Shown here: positions 14,417 through 64,000 of the stretch, piece after piece
Position numbering within the stretch: the stretch's first letter is position 1
Layout: every line of letters begins with the position of its first letter
The notes under the pieces: generated by a model
What the model was told of the DNA's origin: nothing
The model's database searches: none
The model's input: only the letters and a program-made list of their open reading frames with translations
Program-made: the position numbers and the translations under genes
From: Escherichia coli
GTDB lineage: Bacteria > Pseudomonadota > Gammaproteobacteria > Enterobacterales > Enterobacteriaceae
Direction: 5' to 3' (one strand)
Assembly: GCF_050920415.1 (NCBI RefSeq)
Contig: NZ_CP169309.1
DNA: 64,000 nucleotides

Positions 14417-17400
14417 TTAGAACGTTTTCTTGAAGTTCAGCATCACGCCTTTATCGCTGATACCATCCTCTTTCCAGTGGTAAGCATCCAGATTCAGCGA
14501 ACTTTCTTTGCTGCTGTACTTCACGCCGACGCTTGCCAGACTGTTGATGCCGCCGCCCTTTTGCCCATCATCGACATTAAAGTGCTGGCTGCCTGCGCCT
14601 GCCAGGCTTGCCGTGCGCTGGCTCTTGCTGTAGCTGAGGTTCGGCCCACCTTCCAGCGTGGCGTTCACACTCCAGCCGTCTTTCCCTGCGTAGTCCAGCT
14701 TCAGCCCGACGATGCTGTCCACCGCCGTTTCGCTGCCGCTGTTCATGCTCAGGTTAAAGTCTCCGGCATTGCGCTCCTGATAGTCGCCTTCCAGCGTGTG
14801 ACGCAGTTTCACACCCGCATATGGCGTGATTTTCAGCCCTTCGCGCGGTTCAAAGGTTTTCGCCCCTTCGCTGCGGAACTCCAGGTACTGTTGTTTCACA
14901 TTCGTGTCTGCCGTCTTACTGATGTCGCCGTAAGCCACCGAACGGCTGCTGTCCAGTTGGTGGATATCGTAACGCAGCGCGTTATTCCAGCTCATACCGT
15001 TGTCAAAGGACATCTGATGCTTCAGGCCAAAGAACTGGCTGTAGCCGCCTGTAACACCATTATCACCCGCTTTCTGCGCACCGTCGCCGTCCAGACGGGC
15101 GATACCGTACTCCAGGCTCATGGTCTGGTTTTCGCTCAGGTCGAGGGTTTTACGCAGCGCCAGCATGTCGTACTCGGTATTGTTACCCAGCTCAGCACGC
15201 GGATCGCCTTTCGCCACCACGTTAAATGCCAGAGCGTTGCCCATCTTCGGTGCTGCGTCCGCCAACATGCTGAAGCGGTTACTCAACACGCGCGCCTCAC
15301 GGAATACCGTGGTAGCCTGGCTCCCGCTGACTTGTTTTAGCGCGTTGTTCAGCTCTGCAGTGGTGCCGACGTTCAGACTGGTATACAGCTCGTTGTTGGT
15401 GTAACCCGCATCCAGCGCTTTTGCCACGTCATTCACTGAGGCATCCGTCGCCACATCGGTGTAGGCGTTTTTGCTCATGGTCACGTCAACGTTGCCGCTG
15501 GCGTCGGTACTGCCTGTCGCCTGCCAGACAACAGATGTCGAAGTGATCGCTTGCGCATCGGTCAGGTTGCTGCCTTGCACCACATCATCAAAGCTGACGG
15601 TTTTGTCCGCCGTTCCCGCCGCAAAAGCGGTGTTGATCTCCACGCCTTTCATACTGGCGTTATTGACCATCAGCTTACCGGCGCTACCGTCGGCGTTCGT
15701 CCCCACCACGTAACCATTGAGGTTGTTCATGCCATCGTTACGGCTAACGGAAGAAGAATGGCTGCCGTCGTATGGCGTAATGGTGGGTTCTTCCGGCGCG
15801 GTAAAGTCGACATAGTGTACTTCCGTACCGTCTCCCCCTTCGCCACTGCCCTCTATCGGCGTGCCAGATTGTTTAATCAATCCGGAACCATTCACGTTGT
15901 CGTCAATATAAACAGTGCCGTTGTTAACAATATGACCATTGCTCCCGAGCTTGCTGAAGGCGAAGGAGTTATTGGCGTAGATATTAATCGTACCGTTGTT
16001 TTCAACCACACCATCCGCTTTGGCGTCCGATGCTAATTGCATCCCAATCATGCCTGTTTGTGTCGTGCCTTCGCTGCCGACATTGATGGTGCCATTGTTA
16101 ACCATTTTTGCGCTGCCGTGCGCATTCATGGCGATGGTATTATTTTTATCAATATTGATAGTGCCATCGTTAATTGCCCGGCTACCGGCGTTATTATTTG
16201 ACGTCGTAACCTGGCCGTTAATCACACCTGTCGTACCGTTATACAATGTATGCCCATTACCGCCGGTAGCGATATCAGCATCCCCATTCACTGTACCCCA
16301 GTTGTTGAAATGCCCAGCCCAAAGTCCGTTATCAAGAAGATCGACAACACCACCGTCCAGGTTATTGAAGGTCGCGTTTTTATCAACCGAACCACTATGA
16401 ACCGTTCCTGCGTTATTGAATGTGGCTGCGGCAGAAAAATTCACTTTATTGACCGTTCCACCCGCTTCGTTATTCATCACGGCAGAAGCAGAGGCTCCCT
16501 TCCATGCTGTTACCGTCCCGGCGTTATAAAACGTACTGGCCCATTGTTCAACAGTGTTGATAGTGCCGGAGTTGTTGATAACAGAACCCGCAACGGTTGT
16601 ACCTACTTGCCCGGTCACTACACCTTCGTTAGTAAACACGCCGCCATCCACAGAAACGGTTTTTGTCGTGCCCTGGTTGGTGTATTCCCCACCCGTTGCA
16701 ATATCAACCTCGTTTATACTGCCCGTGGTTTCATTGACCAGATGACCAAAGTCAGCCACGGTGACAGCCCCTCCGGTTACGGTACCCGCGTTGGTTACCA
16801 GGGTTTCAGCGGTCGCTATCATATCAGTAGAACCACCGGATGAAGACAGGTTAAGCGTCTCCCCCTCGGCCGTAATGATATCGCCGTTTCTCCAGCTTAA
16901 TGAAACGAACCCATCAGTCGGGTTATAGGCGTTACTGTCCTGGCATATACCAAAAGTACAGATGGTTCCGTAATTAACGATAGTCCCGCTGCCATCGTTA
17001 TAGAATGCCTGCCCGTTTTCAGCATTGATATTGATGATGCCCGTCTGGTCATTAACTGCGGTACCGCCACTATAAACTGCCATACCAACGAGTTTATTCG
17101 CCCCCAGGCTGCCATCAAAGTTCTCATTCTTCTCGAGGTTGATGGTACCCTGATTAACCACCGTATTATCGGTACCGTATGCTGCCATCCCAGCACCTGC
17201 ATTATAGATAGTGATAGTACCTGACTGCTGGTTAAGCGCGGTAGCATTTTGCCTTGCGCCACCATAACTGTCCGTTCCTACCGCCATGCCGACACCATAA
17301 TTTTTTGCATTGCTGCTGCCGATATCGTTGCGTAAGGTGGTGGTATCGTTTTCATCTACCCAGATCGTATCCAGGGTAATCTGGCCTGCATTTGTTACAG

Positions 17401-49309: not shown

Positions 49310-49352
49310 ATATTTTTTAACCTTAAAATAATATGGTACACACAATGGTACA

Positions 49353-51782: not shown

Positions 51783-51941
51783 CTCAACAACTCCATAATG
51801 TTAACTTATGTGTCAATTCTACCATTTTGCGATCTGTGTTACATTTCTGTCTTATACAAAATGTATTTGTTGATTTACATCAATGTTGTGAAAATGCGGT
51901 TTGTGGATACTACAACCAACGAAACAACGGAGGGTAAGACA

Positions 51942-52181
51942 ATGAAAGGCTTAAAAAATATCGCTATCGCTGCAATGGTTGCTGGTCTGGTTGGTTGTGC
52001 TGATATGCCGAAACGTGAATGCACGGCAATTTATCAAACTGGCGGTAATGAGTATGCGGTTGCAGTCTTCGGTGTCGCGGATGTTGGTGGTCACAAAATG
52101 GCTAAGGCTGGGTATCCATTTAATTTTCAATGGGTGAGCGTTGACCACTTCAAGAAAACGGATTGCCCGGAATTGAATTAA
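51942..52181 (+). CDS. phage lipoprotein, possible Cor-like superinfection-exclusion protein
   Basis: 79 aa from ATG at 51942 with SD GGAGGG; lipobox LVGC; opposite-strand gene at the distal end of the tail module, where cor sits in N15/phi80-like phages; family assignment is inference. Confidence 0.5.
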   Translation: MKGLKNIAIAAMVAGLVGCADMPKRECTAIYQTGGNEYAVAVFGVADVGGHKMAKAGYPFNFQWVSVDHFKKTDCPELN

Positions 52182-58511: not shown

Positions 58512-58616
58512 ACCGTGAATGCCAAAATGGATTGATAGCGTGATTTACAATATGTATATTTTACTCAAACGAACGGTAGTAAACAAAATGGCACAGTTTG
58601 GAACAGGATAGGACAC

Positions 58617-58775
58617 TATGAGATCCGCAAAATACGCAGAAAAAGTTTTCGTTGAAGTGAAAGGCGACATGAAAAAATTTATGGATGTTCTTATCAAAGA
58701 GATGGGAAAACCGTTCCATATAGCCGAACGTCAGTATTACGCTTGCAAGGCTAATAGCTACAACAGATACGCATG
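58617..58775 (+). CDS. moron ORF C1 (52 aa), unknown function
   Basis: First ORF of a compact plus-strand cassette inserted between tail genes L and M. Confidence 0.4.
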
Positions 58776-58798
58776 ACAATAAACACAAAGGTAACACT

Positions 58799-58891
58799 AT
58801 GCAAAAATATCGTCTTGATGTGTGGATGGCTGGAAATAAAGATTGGGAAGGTTTCGGATTATTTGACAGCCGCGAACTGGCTAACGACTAA
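58799..58891 (+). CDS. moron ORF C2 (30 aa), unknown function
   Basis: Short ORF with AAGG SD in the same cassette. Confidence 0.3.
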   Translation: MQKYRLDVWMAGNKDWEGFGLFDSRELAND

Positions 58892-58972
58892 GGGGAAAAA
58901 CTTGTTAACTTCTTTGGACGGGCCAGGGAGTTTTAAGTAACCCCGGTACAGATAGAAAATAAGGTGGAAGAG

Positions 58973-59152
58973 ATGAAATACGATATTGATAACGACGCTT
59001 GCTTTAAACAAAACTTTGCGGATTCTATGGATCAGTCTTGCCCTGAAATACACGCACACGGTTTCCCGGCAGATAATCCAGACATGAAACGCGAATACGA
59101 AAAAGCGGCGAAAGATTTCTGCATCGACAATCTGGGCGCATTCGATAGATAA
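58973..59152 (+). CDS. moron ORF C3 (59 aa, acidic, Cys/His-containing), unknown function
   Basis: ATG preceded by AAGGTGG; track ORF 58964..59152. Confidence 0.5.
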   Translation: MKYDIDNDACFKQNFADSMDQSCPEIHAHGFPADNPDMKREYEKAAKDFCIDNLGAFDR

Positions 59153-59161
59153 GGCGGCAAT

Positions 59162-59410
59162 ATGGCGAGGCGAAAACATAGCGATTATATGTACACGCTG
59201 AAGCAGGCCGCCCGCCTTATCGGTTATCATGAACACGAATTTATTGATTTGCTGATTGAGCGCGGGATTTTATACCAGGTCTGTTTAACGCTGTACCCGA
59301 AAGCGAAATACTTGCAGGAAAAGTTATTCATCATCATGACGGATGAAAACCAGGTTAATCACTCATTCGTCACTGCCAAAGGCGTTAATTATCTGCGCGA
59401 TAACTTATAG
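59162..59410 (+). CDS. moron ORF C4 (82 aa), putative HTH-containing protein
   Basis: ATG preceded by AAGGCGG; segment TLKQAARLIGYHEHEFIDLLIERGIL resembles a helix-turn-helix. Confidence 0.5.
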   Translation: MARRKHSDYMYTLKQAARLIGYHEHEFIDLLIERGILYQVCLTLYPKAKYLQEKLFIIMTDENQVNHSFVTAKGVNYLRDNL

Positions 59411-60119: not shown

Positions 60120-60308
60120 AAAACCCCCATAAGTTACATTTTGTATATATCTTTACGCGCTTCTACGCGAAAAATAAGATCTTCATCACAATGATTATAG
60201 CTAGTTTACAAAATGGCTTCACATAGCACACAACAAGATGTATATAAAAAGCAAGAAGAAAAGCAGTACCAACGAAGGAGGCCCAAAAATGAAACGCTAT
60301 GAGTAGTA

Positions 60309-60443
60309 ATGCTAAACAACGCATTCGAACAAGTGGAAATAGCAATCGTTAAGGGTTTCGACGACGCATTTAAATACGGTCAATTCATGATTAATGCAAA
60401 AGAAGATGAATACCGTGATTTCTTCCTGAAGGCTCTTAATTAA
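60309..60443 (+). CDS. moron ORF B1 (44 aa), unknown function
   Basis: ATG 2 nt after the stop of a 5-codon mini-ORF (MKRYE) that has an AGGAGG SD, suggesting translational coupling. Confidence 0.35.
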   Translation: MLNNAFEQVEIAIVKGFDDAFKYGQFMINAKEDEYRDFFLKALN

Positions 60444-60462
60444 GAATAATCGGGGGTGAGCT

Positions 60463-60717
60463 ATGAAACTGGTAGCGATTGACAAAAACCTGAAAGTACA
60501 GAAAAACGCACAGGACCGGATTATCAAGAAAGGTAAGGAACTGCTTAAAGCATTTTTGAAGAAAGAGGCGCGCCCCAAAAAGTTACGCGATGGTTATGGC
60601 TTTAAATTCGATATCAATCATGACTGGCGGCTGTTCAGCGAAGACCTCAAAGTCTGGTTAATAATCGATCACCTGGAATATAACAGGCACTGCGGGGTTA
60701 AAGGGGCGCATAAGTGA
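60463..60717 (+). CDS. moron ORF B2 (84 aa), candidate RelE/ParE-superfamily (HigB/Gp49-like) toxin
   Basis: ATG with SD GGGGGTGAG; basic N-terminal helices and C-terminal RDGYGFKFDINHDWRLFSEDLKVWLIIDHLEY pattern resembling the RelE/HigB beta-sheet core; assignment by pattern recognition only. Confidence 0.5.
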   Translation: MKLVAIDKNLKVQKNAQDRIIKKGKELLKAFLKKEARPKKLRDGYGFKFDINHDWRLFSEDLKVWLIIDHLEYNRHCGVKGAHK

Positions 60718-60725
60718 GGCGGGAT

Positions 60726-60818
60726 ATGGAGGACGATAAATTCACCTGGCGGGAGATCTGGAATATTTGGTTGGTGATGTTTTCTCGCAGCTATATAGCC
60801 AGAAACGGAAGATTGTAA
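60726..60818 (+). CDS. moron ORF B3 (30 aa), unknown function
   Basis: Short ORF with SD (GAGGCGG) abutting B2. Confidence 0.3.
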   Translation: MEDDKFTWREIWNIWLVMFSRSYIARNGRL

Positions 60819-60836
60819 TTTGCGGAGGAAAATAAA

Positions 60837-61013
60837 ATGAAAAACCCGGCAAATAAAAGCAATGTAAAACGTATAGCCTGGATCGTGAAATGGATGGATA
60901 GTAAAGGAGACACATATACTGAACCATTTTTCAAACATACTGATGCAGTATTTGCAAGAAGCGTAAGAGGCGGGAAAATTGAAAGAGGATATACAAGTTT
61001 TGAGAATAACTAA
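60837..61013 (+). CDS. moron ORF B4 (58 aa), unknown function
   Basis: ATG with GGAGG SD; followed by a strong terminator. Confidence 0.45.
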   Translation: MKNPANKSNVKRIAWIVKWMDSKGDTYTEPFFKHTDAVFARSVRGGKIERGYTSFENN

Positions 61014-61020
61014 AATATAA

Positions 61021-61050
61021 CCCCGGCATTGTACCGGGGTTTTGTTTATT
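61021..61050. terminator. intrinsic terminator closing moron cassette B, overlapping the 3' end of the tape-measure gene
   Basis: CCCCGG-cattgta-CCGGGG followed by TTTTGTTTATTT. Confidence 0.8.
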
Positions 61051-63385
61051 TGCGGCGCGGTTGCAATATTCCCCCTGGTCTTTGTGATTCCCTTGTTATC
61101 ATTTTCATTGCCACACGTTCCATTGTTTGTTCAAGTCTGCGGCTATCTTCGTCGCTAAATCCGTTTGTGGTCTGAATGTTAATATTGACAGGCATACTAA
61201 TACCGCCGCCACCAATATCACGACCAGGTATAACCCTGCCATTCTCGCCAGGAATCATGTATTGATTGCCGTTAGACGTCTGGAATAGCTCCGGCCTGTT
61301 GTGTTCCCCTACACGGTACATGTTGCCACCAATGACGCTACCACCATTAAAGCGCCCGCCGCCGAAAATGGATGTTGCCAGTGACATGATCGCAGTAAGC
61401 GCCGCCGAGCCAGCCGCCGCCCAGCTACCGCCAGTTGATGCCGCTGTCGCTGCCGCCGCCGGGGCCGCCGCCGCAGCAATGCTTCCCTGAGCGGCAACCG
61501 CGCTTGCCGTTGTGCTGGCCTGCGTGGCCTTGCTTTGTGTCTCCATCATGATTTGATCTGCTATCCAGTTGGCAGCTATGTCCGAAAGTCTGTTACCGAT
61601 ATTCCCAAGTATATTGCTTCCTAAGTTAGCAAAAACATCACTTAATGATTGAGTGCCGTTTAGCAGGCCAACAAGGGCGTTACTCATACCACCTTTAAGG
61701 CCATTAACGCAATCACCGATCAGGCCGTTAGTATCGCTTTGCGCCTGCCATTGCTCCCATTTTAGATCGCGAATCTGTTGCTCATAGGCCAACAATTCCT
61801 GTTTCTGTTGCGCTTCGGTAGCGCCCAGGTCTATAAGCATTTGCTTACGGACGGCCCATTCATTTTGCGCCTGCTGGATGGGGTCAACTTCGCCTTTTAG
61901 CTGGTCCATCGGGCTAACTATTTGCGACCATTTATCACGCAATTCATCTACCGGAATTTGTGCTAACTCTTCTTTTAGCTCCTTGCCGATTCCCTTTTGA
62001 GCGGCGCGGTATTCAAGGAGTGTAATTTTCCCCTGGGCGAATGCAGCATCAATGGCCTTGCCGTTCTCTAACGCTTTGCGCATGGCGGCTGCGTCTTTGT
62101 TGTACTGGTCAGAAACGCTTATGCCTTTGTCACCAAGCCGATCAGCTTCAGTTTTCTTCTCTTTTTTCTGTTTTTTCGGCTTGTCTACTGGCTTGTCGAA
62201 TCCGGTAATAGTTCCGTCATTGGCGGCATTCTGTTCACTTTTCCTTGCTTCTTCTGTAGCCTGGATTGCAGCGGTCAGATCATCCTGTAATTGCATGACC
62301 TTACCAACGGTCTTACCATATTTCTTCTCATAGTTGCTGTCGTATTCGTCGGTTTGTTCTCCTACCACCTCTTTCATCCATTTGTAGCCGTCCATTAGCG
62401 CTTTGATTGGTGTCACCATTGCGATGATCTTCTCTGCCACCTCACCAGCCTTGATTCCGACATCCTCAAATATATCAATGAATTCGCTGCCAGCCGTCTT
62501 CAGGGTGATAAAGCAGGTTTTAGCGAAATCAGCACCATCACCTAAAGCCTTAACACCTTTCGTGACAAGATCGATACCAGCAACAACCGTATCGGATACA
62601 CCAAAAAGATCGTCCAACTGTTCGACAAGCCCCATAACTTCGACTTTAAGCTCATTCAGGGCCATACCGGATGTGCGCGGCAACTGCGCGAACTTCTCGT
62701 TTGTTTCCTGCGTAGCCGCCTGGATTGCGTTAACCATCCTTTCTGCCGTGATCTTACCGTCCAGCATTTCGGCGCGGAATTGGCCCATAGATAACCCCAT
62801 CTGGCGGGCCATTGTCTGTACGATGGTCGGGGTGTTCTCTAACAGGCTATTGAATTCTTCAGCACGAAGCACGCCGCCGTCGATAGACTGACGGAATTGA
62901 CGCATTGAGTTTGACATCTGCTCCGCAGATGCGCCGCCCAACGCCCCCATTTTCTGAATCGTACCTACCAGGTTAAGCAATTGCCCTTCAGTGGCGGACG
63001 TGTTCTTCAGGGAGATAGCCAGGCCTTGCCACAGATCCCCGGTATCCTTCATGCTTTGGCCTGTTTCTTTTGATATTGCTTTCAGGCCGTCGAAAACCCG
63101 CCCGGCGGACTCCGCATCGCCCGTAAGCATTTTGATTTTTACGCGAAGCATTTTTGCTTGCTCCGCCATATCCATAAATTGGCGCACAGCCTCCGCAGCA
63201 ATTAGCAGATGGATAACCCTGGTTAGTGCTTTGATTGATGTCTTCAGTGTGTTTACCTGGCGATCTGCCTGTTTAGCACCGCGCTCTATACGGTCAAAGG
63301 CCTGGTCTGCCTGTCGTTGTGCTACAAGAAGTTGTCCTGTTTTTGCGTCAACTTCGTAATAAATTGTGCCTACACTGGTAGCCAT
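61046..63385 (-). CDS. phage tail tape-measure protein (lambda H-like)
   Basis: 779 aa, alpha-helical and Ala/Gly-rich, Gly-rich C-terminal segment; located upstream of M. Confidence 0.88.
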   Translation of the reverse strand: MATSVGTIYYEVDAKTGQLLVAQRQADQAFDRIERGAKQADRQVNTLKTSIKALTRVIHLLIAAEAVRQFMDMAEQAKMLRVKIKMLTGDAESAGRVFDGLKAISKETGQSMKDTGDLWQGLAISLKNTSATEGQLLNLVGTIQKMGALGGASAEQMSNSMRQFRQSIDGGVLRAEEFNSLLENTPTIVQTMARQMGLSMGQFRAEMLDGKITAERMVNAIQAATQETNEKFAQLPRTSGMALNELKVEVMGLVEQLDDLFGVSDTVVAGIDLVTKGVKALGDGADFAKTCFITLKTAGSEFIDIFEDVGIKAGEVAEKIIAMVTPIKALMDGYKWMKEVVGEQTDEYDSNYEKKYGKTVGKVMQLQDDLTAAIQATEEARKSEQNAANDGTITGFDKPVDKPKKQKKEKKTEADRLGDKGISVSDQYNKDAAAMRKALENGKAIDAAFAQGKITLLEYRAAQKGIGKELKEELAQIPVDELRDKWSQIVSPMDQLKGEVDPIQQAQNEWAVRKQMLIDLGATEAQQKQELLAYEQQIRDLKWEQWQAQSDTNGLIGDCVNGLKGGMSNALVGLLNGTQSLSDVFANLGSNILGNIGNRLSDIAANWIADQIMMETQSKATQASTTASAVAAQGSIAAAAAPAAAATAASTGGSWAAAGSAALTAIMSLATSIFGGGRFNGGSVIGGNMYRVGEHNRPELFQTSNGNQYMIPGENGRVIPGRDIGGGGISMPVNINIQTTNGFSDEDSRRLEQTMERVAMKMITRESQRPGGILQPRRK

Positions 63386-63536
63386 GATTTAACCTCATGC
63401 AAAATGTGATCTATGCATCTATTTTATACAAAATGTCTTTATTTTAACGATACCGTTTTGTATAGATGATGTAGGGAAAGATAGAAGAGATGCAGGAAGG
63501 ACGGATGTCCCGGAGGAAGTGAAAGAGGATAAGGAA

Positions 63537-63620
63537 ATGAGAAACGTAAACTACCGTCCCAACGAATATGAACGCTATGCGGACCTTATCGAAGAAATGT
63601 TAAAAGCACTTAAAAAATAA
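63537..63620 (+). CDS. moron ORF A1 (27 aa), unknown function
   Basis: Short ORF with purine-rich SD upstream of the secreted-protein gene. Confidence 0.25.
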   Translation: MRNVNYRPNEYERYADLIEEMLKALKK

Positions 63621-63687
63621 ACAATATGCGTGTATAACTAAGTTAAAGGAAGCATTTAGCAAATCAGAATAATTACAGGGGTTGATT

Positions 63688-64000
63688 ATGAAACGGTTAG
63701 CAAAAATGGTACTTGCTGTGATTGCTGCACTGGCATTTAACGCGAACGCTAACGAGGCCATAAACATTAACTGTGAAGAAGTGGCAAACCATGTAGCCGC
63801 ATATCACGACATGATCAAAAAAGAACCAGCCGCACCCACAATTCTTTTTAAGGCAATTGATAAAAATTTTGAAGGGAAACCAGTTTGTGCTCGTTGGTTT
63901 AATTATGGCCTTGTAAACGAGGCTGCTGTAGGCGTAGTCTTTGAAAACAACAGCGAAATAAAAAACAGGATAGCTAACGAGTGTAAAGCAAATAAAGTTG
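63688..64000 (+). CDS. moron ORF A2, secreted Cys-containing protein (partial, runs off window end)
   Basis: ATG at 63688 with SD (AGGGG); cleavable signal peptide MKRLAKMVLAVIAALAFNANA; no stop before position 64000. Confidence 0.55.
   Translation, partial: MKRLAKMVLAVIAALAFNANANEAININCEEVANHVAAYHDMIKKEPAAPTILFKAIDKNFEGKPVCARWFNYGLVNEAAVGVVFENNSEIKNRIANECKANKV

Follow-up and report, generated by a model that had tools for sequence, protein, structure and literature searches.

Ltp, a small, helical, extracytoplasmic protein encoded by the prophage of Streptococcus phage TP-J34, reportedly blocks DNA injection by way of the tape-measure protein. The first moron to be described, gp15 of HK97, is an exclusion gene whose product blocks genome entry without blocking receptors (PMC3594210). 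Closer to the DNA considered here are the mEpimmI phages, which were proposed as a new family in 2025 (PMC11893012, Negrete-Mendez et al.); mEpimmI prophages reportedly equal lambdoid phages in frequency in a human-gut E. coli phage collection, and Lpp exclusion lipoproteins from two of these phages, mEp021 and mEp010, excluded phages when expressed from a plasmid (PMC11893012).

The gene described here, which we call the cargo gene, lies at the end of the window (the whole 64,000-nucleotide stretch of Escherichia coli DNA that was analysed). It is a real gene, antisense to the late tail operon and adjoining the tape-measure gene, and it occupies a polymorphic cassette site for interchangeable envelope proteins. 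To our knowledge, the accessory genes of mEpimmI prophages are unstudied.

From approximately position 49346 to its end, the window aligns at 81-86% identity with MagusPhagus, mEp021 and four more mEp phages, and its gene order is that of mEp021 and relatives, including three opposite-strand islands. This similarity and synteny of the tail module indicate that the window begins in host DNA, passes into the tail end of an mEpimmI prophage and breaks off within the cargo gene. The host-prophage junction lies at about 49346; the first 2.6 kb of a query taken from 40000 match abg (p-aminobenzoyl-glutamate) genes. On the far side of the cargo gene, in the relatives, is the gene for a DUF6246 protein, which matches phrog_791 (function unknown) and occupies the tail assembly chaperone position, a position that suggests a chaperone role; beyond it come tail tube, terminator and head genes. 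The tail operon also contains two plus-strand islands of low GC content (0.40-0.42), which are given with the other features in Table 1. In one relative (L001, positions 15463-16615, outside the window) RefSeq names an 'anti-CBASS protein Acb1 family protein' at the portal position, where phage records have the portal protein; the Acb1 name there may be an annotation artefact or a fusion.

Table 1. Features of the cassette site and of the neighbouring prophage DNA (positions are those of the window unless stated)
Feature	Position	Strand	Remarks
Motif copies in the window	51853-51864, 58544-58591, 60136-60216, 63396-63464		
Motif copies in mEp021	2376, 7724, 11925, 12607, 20143, 42050, 52947		positions in mEp021
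Lipoprotein gene (MKGLKNIAIAAMVAGLVGC...)	~51939-52181	+	between tail fibre/tip genes; counterpart of the Lpp exclusion lipoproteins of mEp021 and mEp010
Low-GC island	58618-59410	+	
KilAC antirepressor-domain protein	59162-59410	+	in island 58618-59410
Low-GC island	60309-61013	+	
ParE-like toxin domain protein	60463-60717	+	in island 60309-61013; no obvious antitoxin match
Tape-measure gene	61046..63385	-	left border of cassette site; 779-aa ORF; PF20155 TMP_3; annotated so in relatives
Third, direct motif copy CATGCAAAATGT	63396..63420	+	overlaps the invariant TGTGATCT block
Inverted repeat TATACAAAA-N22-TTTTGTATA	63425..63464		exact
Shine-Dalgarno of micro-ORF (AGAGGA)	63523-63529		
Micro-ORF, 27 codons MRNVNYRPNEYERYADLIEEMLKALKK	63537..63620	+	ATG 63537, TAA 63620; first gene of cassette operon
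Shine-Dalgarno of cargo gene (GGGG)	63677..63680	+	7 nt 5' of ATG
Cargo gene	63688..64000	+	codons 1-104 of 137; homologue of mEp021_63 / WP_078235049
Signal peptide MKRLAKMVLAVIAALAFNANA	63688..63750	+	residues 1-21; predicted SPase I cut after A21 (ANA/NE)
Codon 67 of cargo gene	63886-63888	+	TGT, Cys

Translated from its ATG, the plus-strand frame of the cargo gene stays open for 104 codons and leaves the window at its end; GGGG or GGAG is kept at the place of its Shine-Dalgarno sequence in the relatives compared. The 615 bases from 63386 to 64000 are 98.5% identical to two E. coli chromosomes (Ecol_244 and PAR) and 89.6% identical to phage MagusPhagus. In both chromosomes the full-length ORF has 137 codons, continuing for 33 codons past the point where the window ends and then reaching a stop; the records of Ecol_244, PAR and MagusPhagus annotate it as hypothetical. 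Since the ORF is complete in DNA of 98.5% identity, it is uninterrupted in the relatives, whose copies supply the end of the gene, and the early interruption for which an earlier note on this DNA had allowed was not found. After the gene, beyond the window, the relatives have a terminator made of a G+C-rich hairpin and a T run (in L001 the hairpin is GCCCGGATCTACCGGGC and the terminator lies 8 nt past the cargo-gene stop); this overlaps the end of the converging DUF6246 gene and is common to both genes. The GC content is 0.39-0.40 for the cargo gene and 0.35 for its leader, versus 0.50 for the tape-measure gene and 0.49 for the DUF6246 gene.

Much of what the earlier note had read from the letters stands: a plus-strand gene that starts at 63688 and runs off the window, a Sec signal peptide, a 27-aa ORF ahead of it, an inverted-repeat pair (put at 63424..63464, where we find an exact repeat starting one base later) and a place on the opposite strand beside the tape-measure gene, the last being identified both by annotation and by PF20155. 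The note had also taken the product for a moron. We concur, as the gene is patchily present between conserved genes, on the opposite strand, with a low and deviating GC content and (in relatives) its terminator, and on these features of the sequence its product is very probably an exported accessory protein. The other possibility considered in the note, a conserved structural or assembly gene of the late operon, fails: mEp021 gp63 is not among the virion-structural labels of that phage, which come from the record of its mass-spectrometry-mapped genome, and many members of the group are without the gene.

The product is predicted to be exported via Sec and cleaved by signal peptidase I after A21. 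Its first 21 residues have the canonical three-part Sec/SPase I pattern (K2, R3 and K6; an 11-residue core, MVLAVIAALAF; A-N-A before the cut), which is kept in 15 of 15 homologues despite residue changes, and the pre-protein, as read, has no lipobox. This part of the protein evolves faster than the rest, with a dN of 0.42 versus 0.14 in the mature part. Among alleles that are otherwise near-identical (window 63736-63753, P0003, P0004, L046), the signal-peptidase site has differing numbers of Asn-Ala units (NANA, NANANA, NANANANA), as if an AACGCN hexanucleotide repeat had slipped.

At least four Cys had been claimed for the first 100 residues; we find three in the part within the window (C29, C67 and C99), and of these, C29 and C99 alone are kept in all 15 aligned homologues. 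C67 is private to the window copy, with Tyr in all 14 other aligned homologues, and this odd Cys could disturb disulfide formation. In the model described below C29 stands at the start of helix 1 and C99 at the end of helix 4, and as an up-down bundle would put these two ends on the same side, a disulfide is plausible on topology, coordinates aside; the mature protein probably has the single disulfide C29-C99. The Cys count of the mature part is even in the other exported cargo proteins of the site, as read from their sequences.

A word-indexed search found homologues in 17 clusters, all of them hypothetical proteins of E. coli or (uncultured) phages. They form two subfamilies (91-98% and 70-75% identity), and an alignment of 15 sequences has 65 invariant columns. 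Between the subfamilies dS is saturated (>2), dN is about 0.15-0.19 and dN/dS is 0.06-0.09; such a low dN/dS with saturated dS indicates strong purifying selection on the protein. Once mature, it is 116 residues long (~12.7 kDa, pI 6.3, GRAVY -0.15), with no hydrophobic segment by computation. Structure prediction, which the earlier note had proposed, gave a confident AlphaFold2 model from the 15-sequence alignment (pLDDT 84.3, pTM 0.82), in which the signal-peptide helix is followed by helices 29-45, 49-60, 66-85, 88-101 and 103-114 and then by a C-terminal beta-hairpin. This suggests that the mature product is a soluble periplasmic protein of five helices with a C-terminal beta-hairpin.

The family is uncharacterised and is without a known fold relative. 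Neither the 137-aa protein nor the 27-aa peptide upstream has a meaningful profile match in Pfam, PHROGs, PADLOC or NCBIfam; sequence and fold searches found no PDB relative of the cargo protein, and its model matches no known fold. An HMM run exhaustively over 1.84 billion cluster representatives returned its own cluster, a fragment and weak, repeat-inflated matches only. The last were eukaryote EF-hand-like repeat proteins, aligned to DKNFEGKPVYAR. The EF-hand is a 12-residue loop with liganding positions 1, 3 and 5 and Glu at position 12; in the DKNFEGKPVYAR loop position 3 is variable and position 12 is occupied by R, T or K, and there is no Pfam EF-hand match. EF-hand homology was therefore rejected, because the loop does not have the calcium-liganding pattern. 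The relation to periplasmic lysozyme inhibitors that the earlier note had raised was not borne out, there being no family profile match and no common fold with Ivy, PliC/MliC or PliG, nor sequence or fold similarity to any other known family in these searches. Similarly, the protein does not belong with HK97 gp15 or YebO, having no such Pfam or NCBIfam match and no transmembrane helix in its mature part.

We collected 54 related loci with a conserved 17-mer, and delimited the site in each by its flanking proteins, giving 48 complete sites; of the 58 loci that the 17-mer retrieved, 12 were fortuitous hits in unrelated AT-rich contigs and were left out. The operon found at the site consists of an AT-rich leader with the inverted repeat, a micro-gene of 27-29 aa, one or two cargo genes and the hairpin terminator. 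Its cargo differs among otherwise similar phages, and is almost always an exported protein, a lipoprotein or a membrane protein. The commonest allele is the 137-aa cargo gene, which stands alone in 16 of the complete sites and is accompanied by a 124-aa lipoprotein in one. The other sites hold a VasI/TagO-like lipoprotein (PF11319) with the 124-aa lipoprotein (nine) or with a 106-aa protein (six); a pair of membrane proteins of 35 and 100 aa (seven); an unrelated 116-119-aa Sec protein, either alone (four) or with the membrane pair (two); a 165-aa Sec protein (one); or other lipoproteins (two). The commonest alternative cargo lipoprotein matches the type VI secretion VasI/TagO family PF11319 with an E value of 1.7e-16. 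By tblastn the cargo gene of the window is present in MagusPhagus, mEp010 and mEp021 only, and mEp515, mEp044 and mEp554 carry unrelated cargo at the site. In many E. coli prophages no more than 80-250 bases next to the tape-measure gene are conserved. For the second subfamily of the cargo protein, six genomic places were read, and each of them is this same site. We also observed recurrent single-helix membrane peptides of 33-35 aa (MD.IK..I.VY..AW.AFNVM.V.VLA...; L070 4417-4518, L007 3318-3425, mEp044_92), which occur alone, behind A or B cargo whose stop overlaps their start, or ahead of a two-helix membrane protein of 100 aa.

The exchange of cargo reaches into the coding region. Nearly every first cargo gene opens with MK(R/Q/S/N)L(A/I/V)K, and continues with a signal peptide or a lipobox; between the A-type protein P0011 (MKRLAKVAMMVALVGFAFNAHA) and the B-type protein of L048 (MKRLAKVVMMVALVGFAFNAHA) the signal peptides differ by one residue. 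Homology between cargo A and the Sec-exported cargo B was considered and rejected, as hhalign aligns only residues 1-43, which are the signal peptide. Judged by these alignments, the mature domains of A and B are unrelated despite their common signal peptide, and cassette exchange has taken place within the coding region; one signal peptide on unrelated mature domains is a tidy example of such exchange. Keyword searches of the main text of PMC11893012 found no mention of gp63, morons or the cassette site; so far as keywords show, that text does not mention a cassette site with a common leader, micro-gene and signal peptide.

The micro-ORF, the first gene of the operon, is intact in all 36 loci that hold homologous DNA, where it occurs as 14 peptide variants of 27-29 aa (consensus MKNVNYRPNEHERYADFIEEMLKALKNKN) with an in-frame 3-nt indel; it has a pN/pS of 0.08, and neither of the other two frames is open in any of the 36. 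These comparisons lead us to conclude that it is a real coding micro-gene under strong purifying selection. It is confined to mEpimmI phages, where it stands ahead of cargo genes that are unrelated to one another. Gene calls for it exist in mEp515 and in metagenome contigs, and it is unannotated in mEp021 and the E. coli records examined. About one third of sites are without the micro-ORF, so it is dispensable.

The leader of the window is a slightly degenerate version of that of its relatives. Its inverted repeat is unique in the window and does not occur in shuffles, and its 9-mer occurs seven times in the window against 0.72 expected. In most relatives it takes the form TATACAAAATG-N18-CATTTTGTATA, and it is present in all 54 related loci. 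Reading outward from the tape-measure start codon, all related loci have, in order, TGTGATCT, CTATTTTATACAAAATG, a partly conserved 18-nt spacer and CATTTTGTATA. Across 27 distinct sequences the arms of the repeat never vary and the flanking stem has no covariation; the alignment thus says nothing for or against an RNA hairpin. The predicted hairpin is stable on the minus strand of MagusPhagus (z -4.7), and not stable in the window (z 0.1); Rfam has no match for the leader. As the cargo gene is on the opposite strand, a separate promoter is implied. A sigma-70 consensus scan of the leader found no promoter that stands out, and a weight-matrix scan of 38 leaders gave promoter scores no better than those of shuffles in either direction. 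A CRP-like half-site (AAATGTGATCT), seen by eye and with a poor second half, adjoins the inverted repeat.

The motif of the leader belongs to a wider family, T(A/T)(T/A)ACAAAATG(G/T). Copies of this family (NNNACAAxATG) occur eight times in the 14.7 kb of prophage and not at all in the 49.3 kb of host DNA. Seven of the eight prophage copies lie at four junctions where opposite-strand islands diverge from late genes. One copy is upstream of the lipoprotein gene (near 51853), and the region there aligns with the cargo leader better than any of 300 shuffles. The motif is, on this distribution, most likely a regulatory site common to the accessory islands. One of the copies in mEp021 is found after the repressor gene, where it adjoins the -35 of the early rightward promoter.

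What the cargo protein does can be approached from its distribution and company. It is present in mEp021, which depends on OmpA, and in mEp010, which depends on LamB; other cargo is found both in mEp515 (OmpA) and in mEp044 and mEp554 (LamB). In these phages the type of cargo does not track the OmpA/LamB receptor, which argues against receptor masking and makes the receptor blocking suggested in the earlier note unlikely. The other variable genes of the tail module are of phage-conflict types (the ParE-like toxin, the KilAC antirepressor and the exclusion-type lipoprotein). The best explanation overall, which we offer tentatively, is that the protein is an exported accessory protein and putative superinfection-exclusion factor; that superinfection exclusion really is its job we would call possible rather than probable. 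We propose that the protein, on the assumption that it is expressed, would be produced by the lysogen, perhaps also in early infection, and would act in the periplasm as a superinfection-exclusion factor. The step targeted would come after adsorption, when the tape-measure protein and DNA cross the periplasm and inner membrane, and would involve no masking of an outer-membrane receptor.

A bolder, two-part version of this proposal can be formulated. It would hold that the tape-measure/DUF6246 site is a dedicated exchange site, with the leader, the micro-gene and the signal-peptide start serving as recombination handles for bringing in unrelated mature domains, and that the 137-aa cargo founds a new fold family of periplasmic exclusion proteins, which stop tape-measure-mediated DNA entry; both parts together are, in our estimation, somewhat unlikely to be right.

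Other functions have to be weighed against exclusion. The cargo protein might be a periplasmic protective protein, akin to an 'orphan immunity' protein, which benefits the lysogen by countering colicins or type VI effectors that act in the periplasm. Small, exported, disulfide-bonded proteins are typical of immunity proteins, the site resembles a polymorphic assortment of envelope proteins, and the commonest alternative cargo is the PF11319 (VasI/TagO) lipoprotein; however, VasI/TagO has no established immunity role, no toxin gene is nearby, and the cargo protein has no sequence or fold similarity to known immunity families, so that we consider this function unlikely. Improbable to a like degree is lysogenic conversion by a factor which, like Bor or Lom of lambda, acts on host physiology or on the interaction with the host animal (stress, adhesion, serum) and has nothing to do with entry. 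An exported accessory protein of a gut E. coli prophage, from a family restricted to E. coli, would suit such a role, and morons are diverse in the benefits that they bring to hosts (PMC3594210), but the protein is predicted to be soluble in the periplasm and not surface exposed, it resembles no known virulence factor, and the variable genes near it are those of phage conflict.

A role in the lytic cycle, for example as a periplasmic factor which guards progeny tails from abortive ejection or modulates lysis, has even less to commend it, and we rate it as quite improbable. Co-regulation is conceivable, as the leader and inverted repeat are common to the start region of the tape-measure gene; nevertheless, the cargo gene is antisense to the late operon, which would set late transcription on a collision course with it, it has the GC content of foreign DNA, and it is dispensable, as mEp515, mEp044 and mEp554 grow on K-12 without it (PMC11893012). 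Finally, a chance or decaying ORF without function, which the lack of family, fold and annotation and the private change of Tyr67 to Cys in the window copy might suggest, is effectively refuted by the selection analysis (the low dN/dS at saturated synonymous divergence); the 65 invariant columns in 15 sequences, the confident AlphaFold model and the conserved Shine-Dalgarno sequence and terminator also speak against it.

Returning to superinfection exclusion, which we prefer, a protein that blocks DNA entry from the periplasm would be a new and structurally unrelated exclusion factor, and would offer a handle on the passage of the tape-measure protein through the periplasm; if it has no role in exclusion, it is one more uncharacterised moron.

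Among known proteins the direct homologue is mEp021 gp63, with approximately 73% identity and the same position, annotated as hypothetical. The Lpp exclusion lipoproteins (mEp021 gp81; Cor/Llp-type) resemble the cargo protein in being exported accessory proteins of the prophage, encoded on the same strand and preceded by a related upstream module with TATACAAAATGT; however, their type follows the receptor type, whereas the cargo protein has no lipobox and its presence does not track the receptor type. HK97 gp15 likewise lies between the gene in the tail-assembly-chaperone position and the tape-measure gene (PMC3594210). Both it and the cargo protein are small, envelope-targeted and accessory, with a foreign-looking composition, but they have no sequence relationship and the analogy is one of position only: gp15 is a single-pass inner-membrane protein, while the cargo protein has a predicted cleavable signal peptide and soluble helical domain, and its gene, on the opposite strand, is preceded by a conserved leader and micro-ORF. 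Ltp differs again, as a lipoprotein of a Gram-positive phage whose fold was not among the matches in PDB searches with the cargo protein, but its mechanism is of the kind that we propose for the cargo protein of this mEpimmI prophage.
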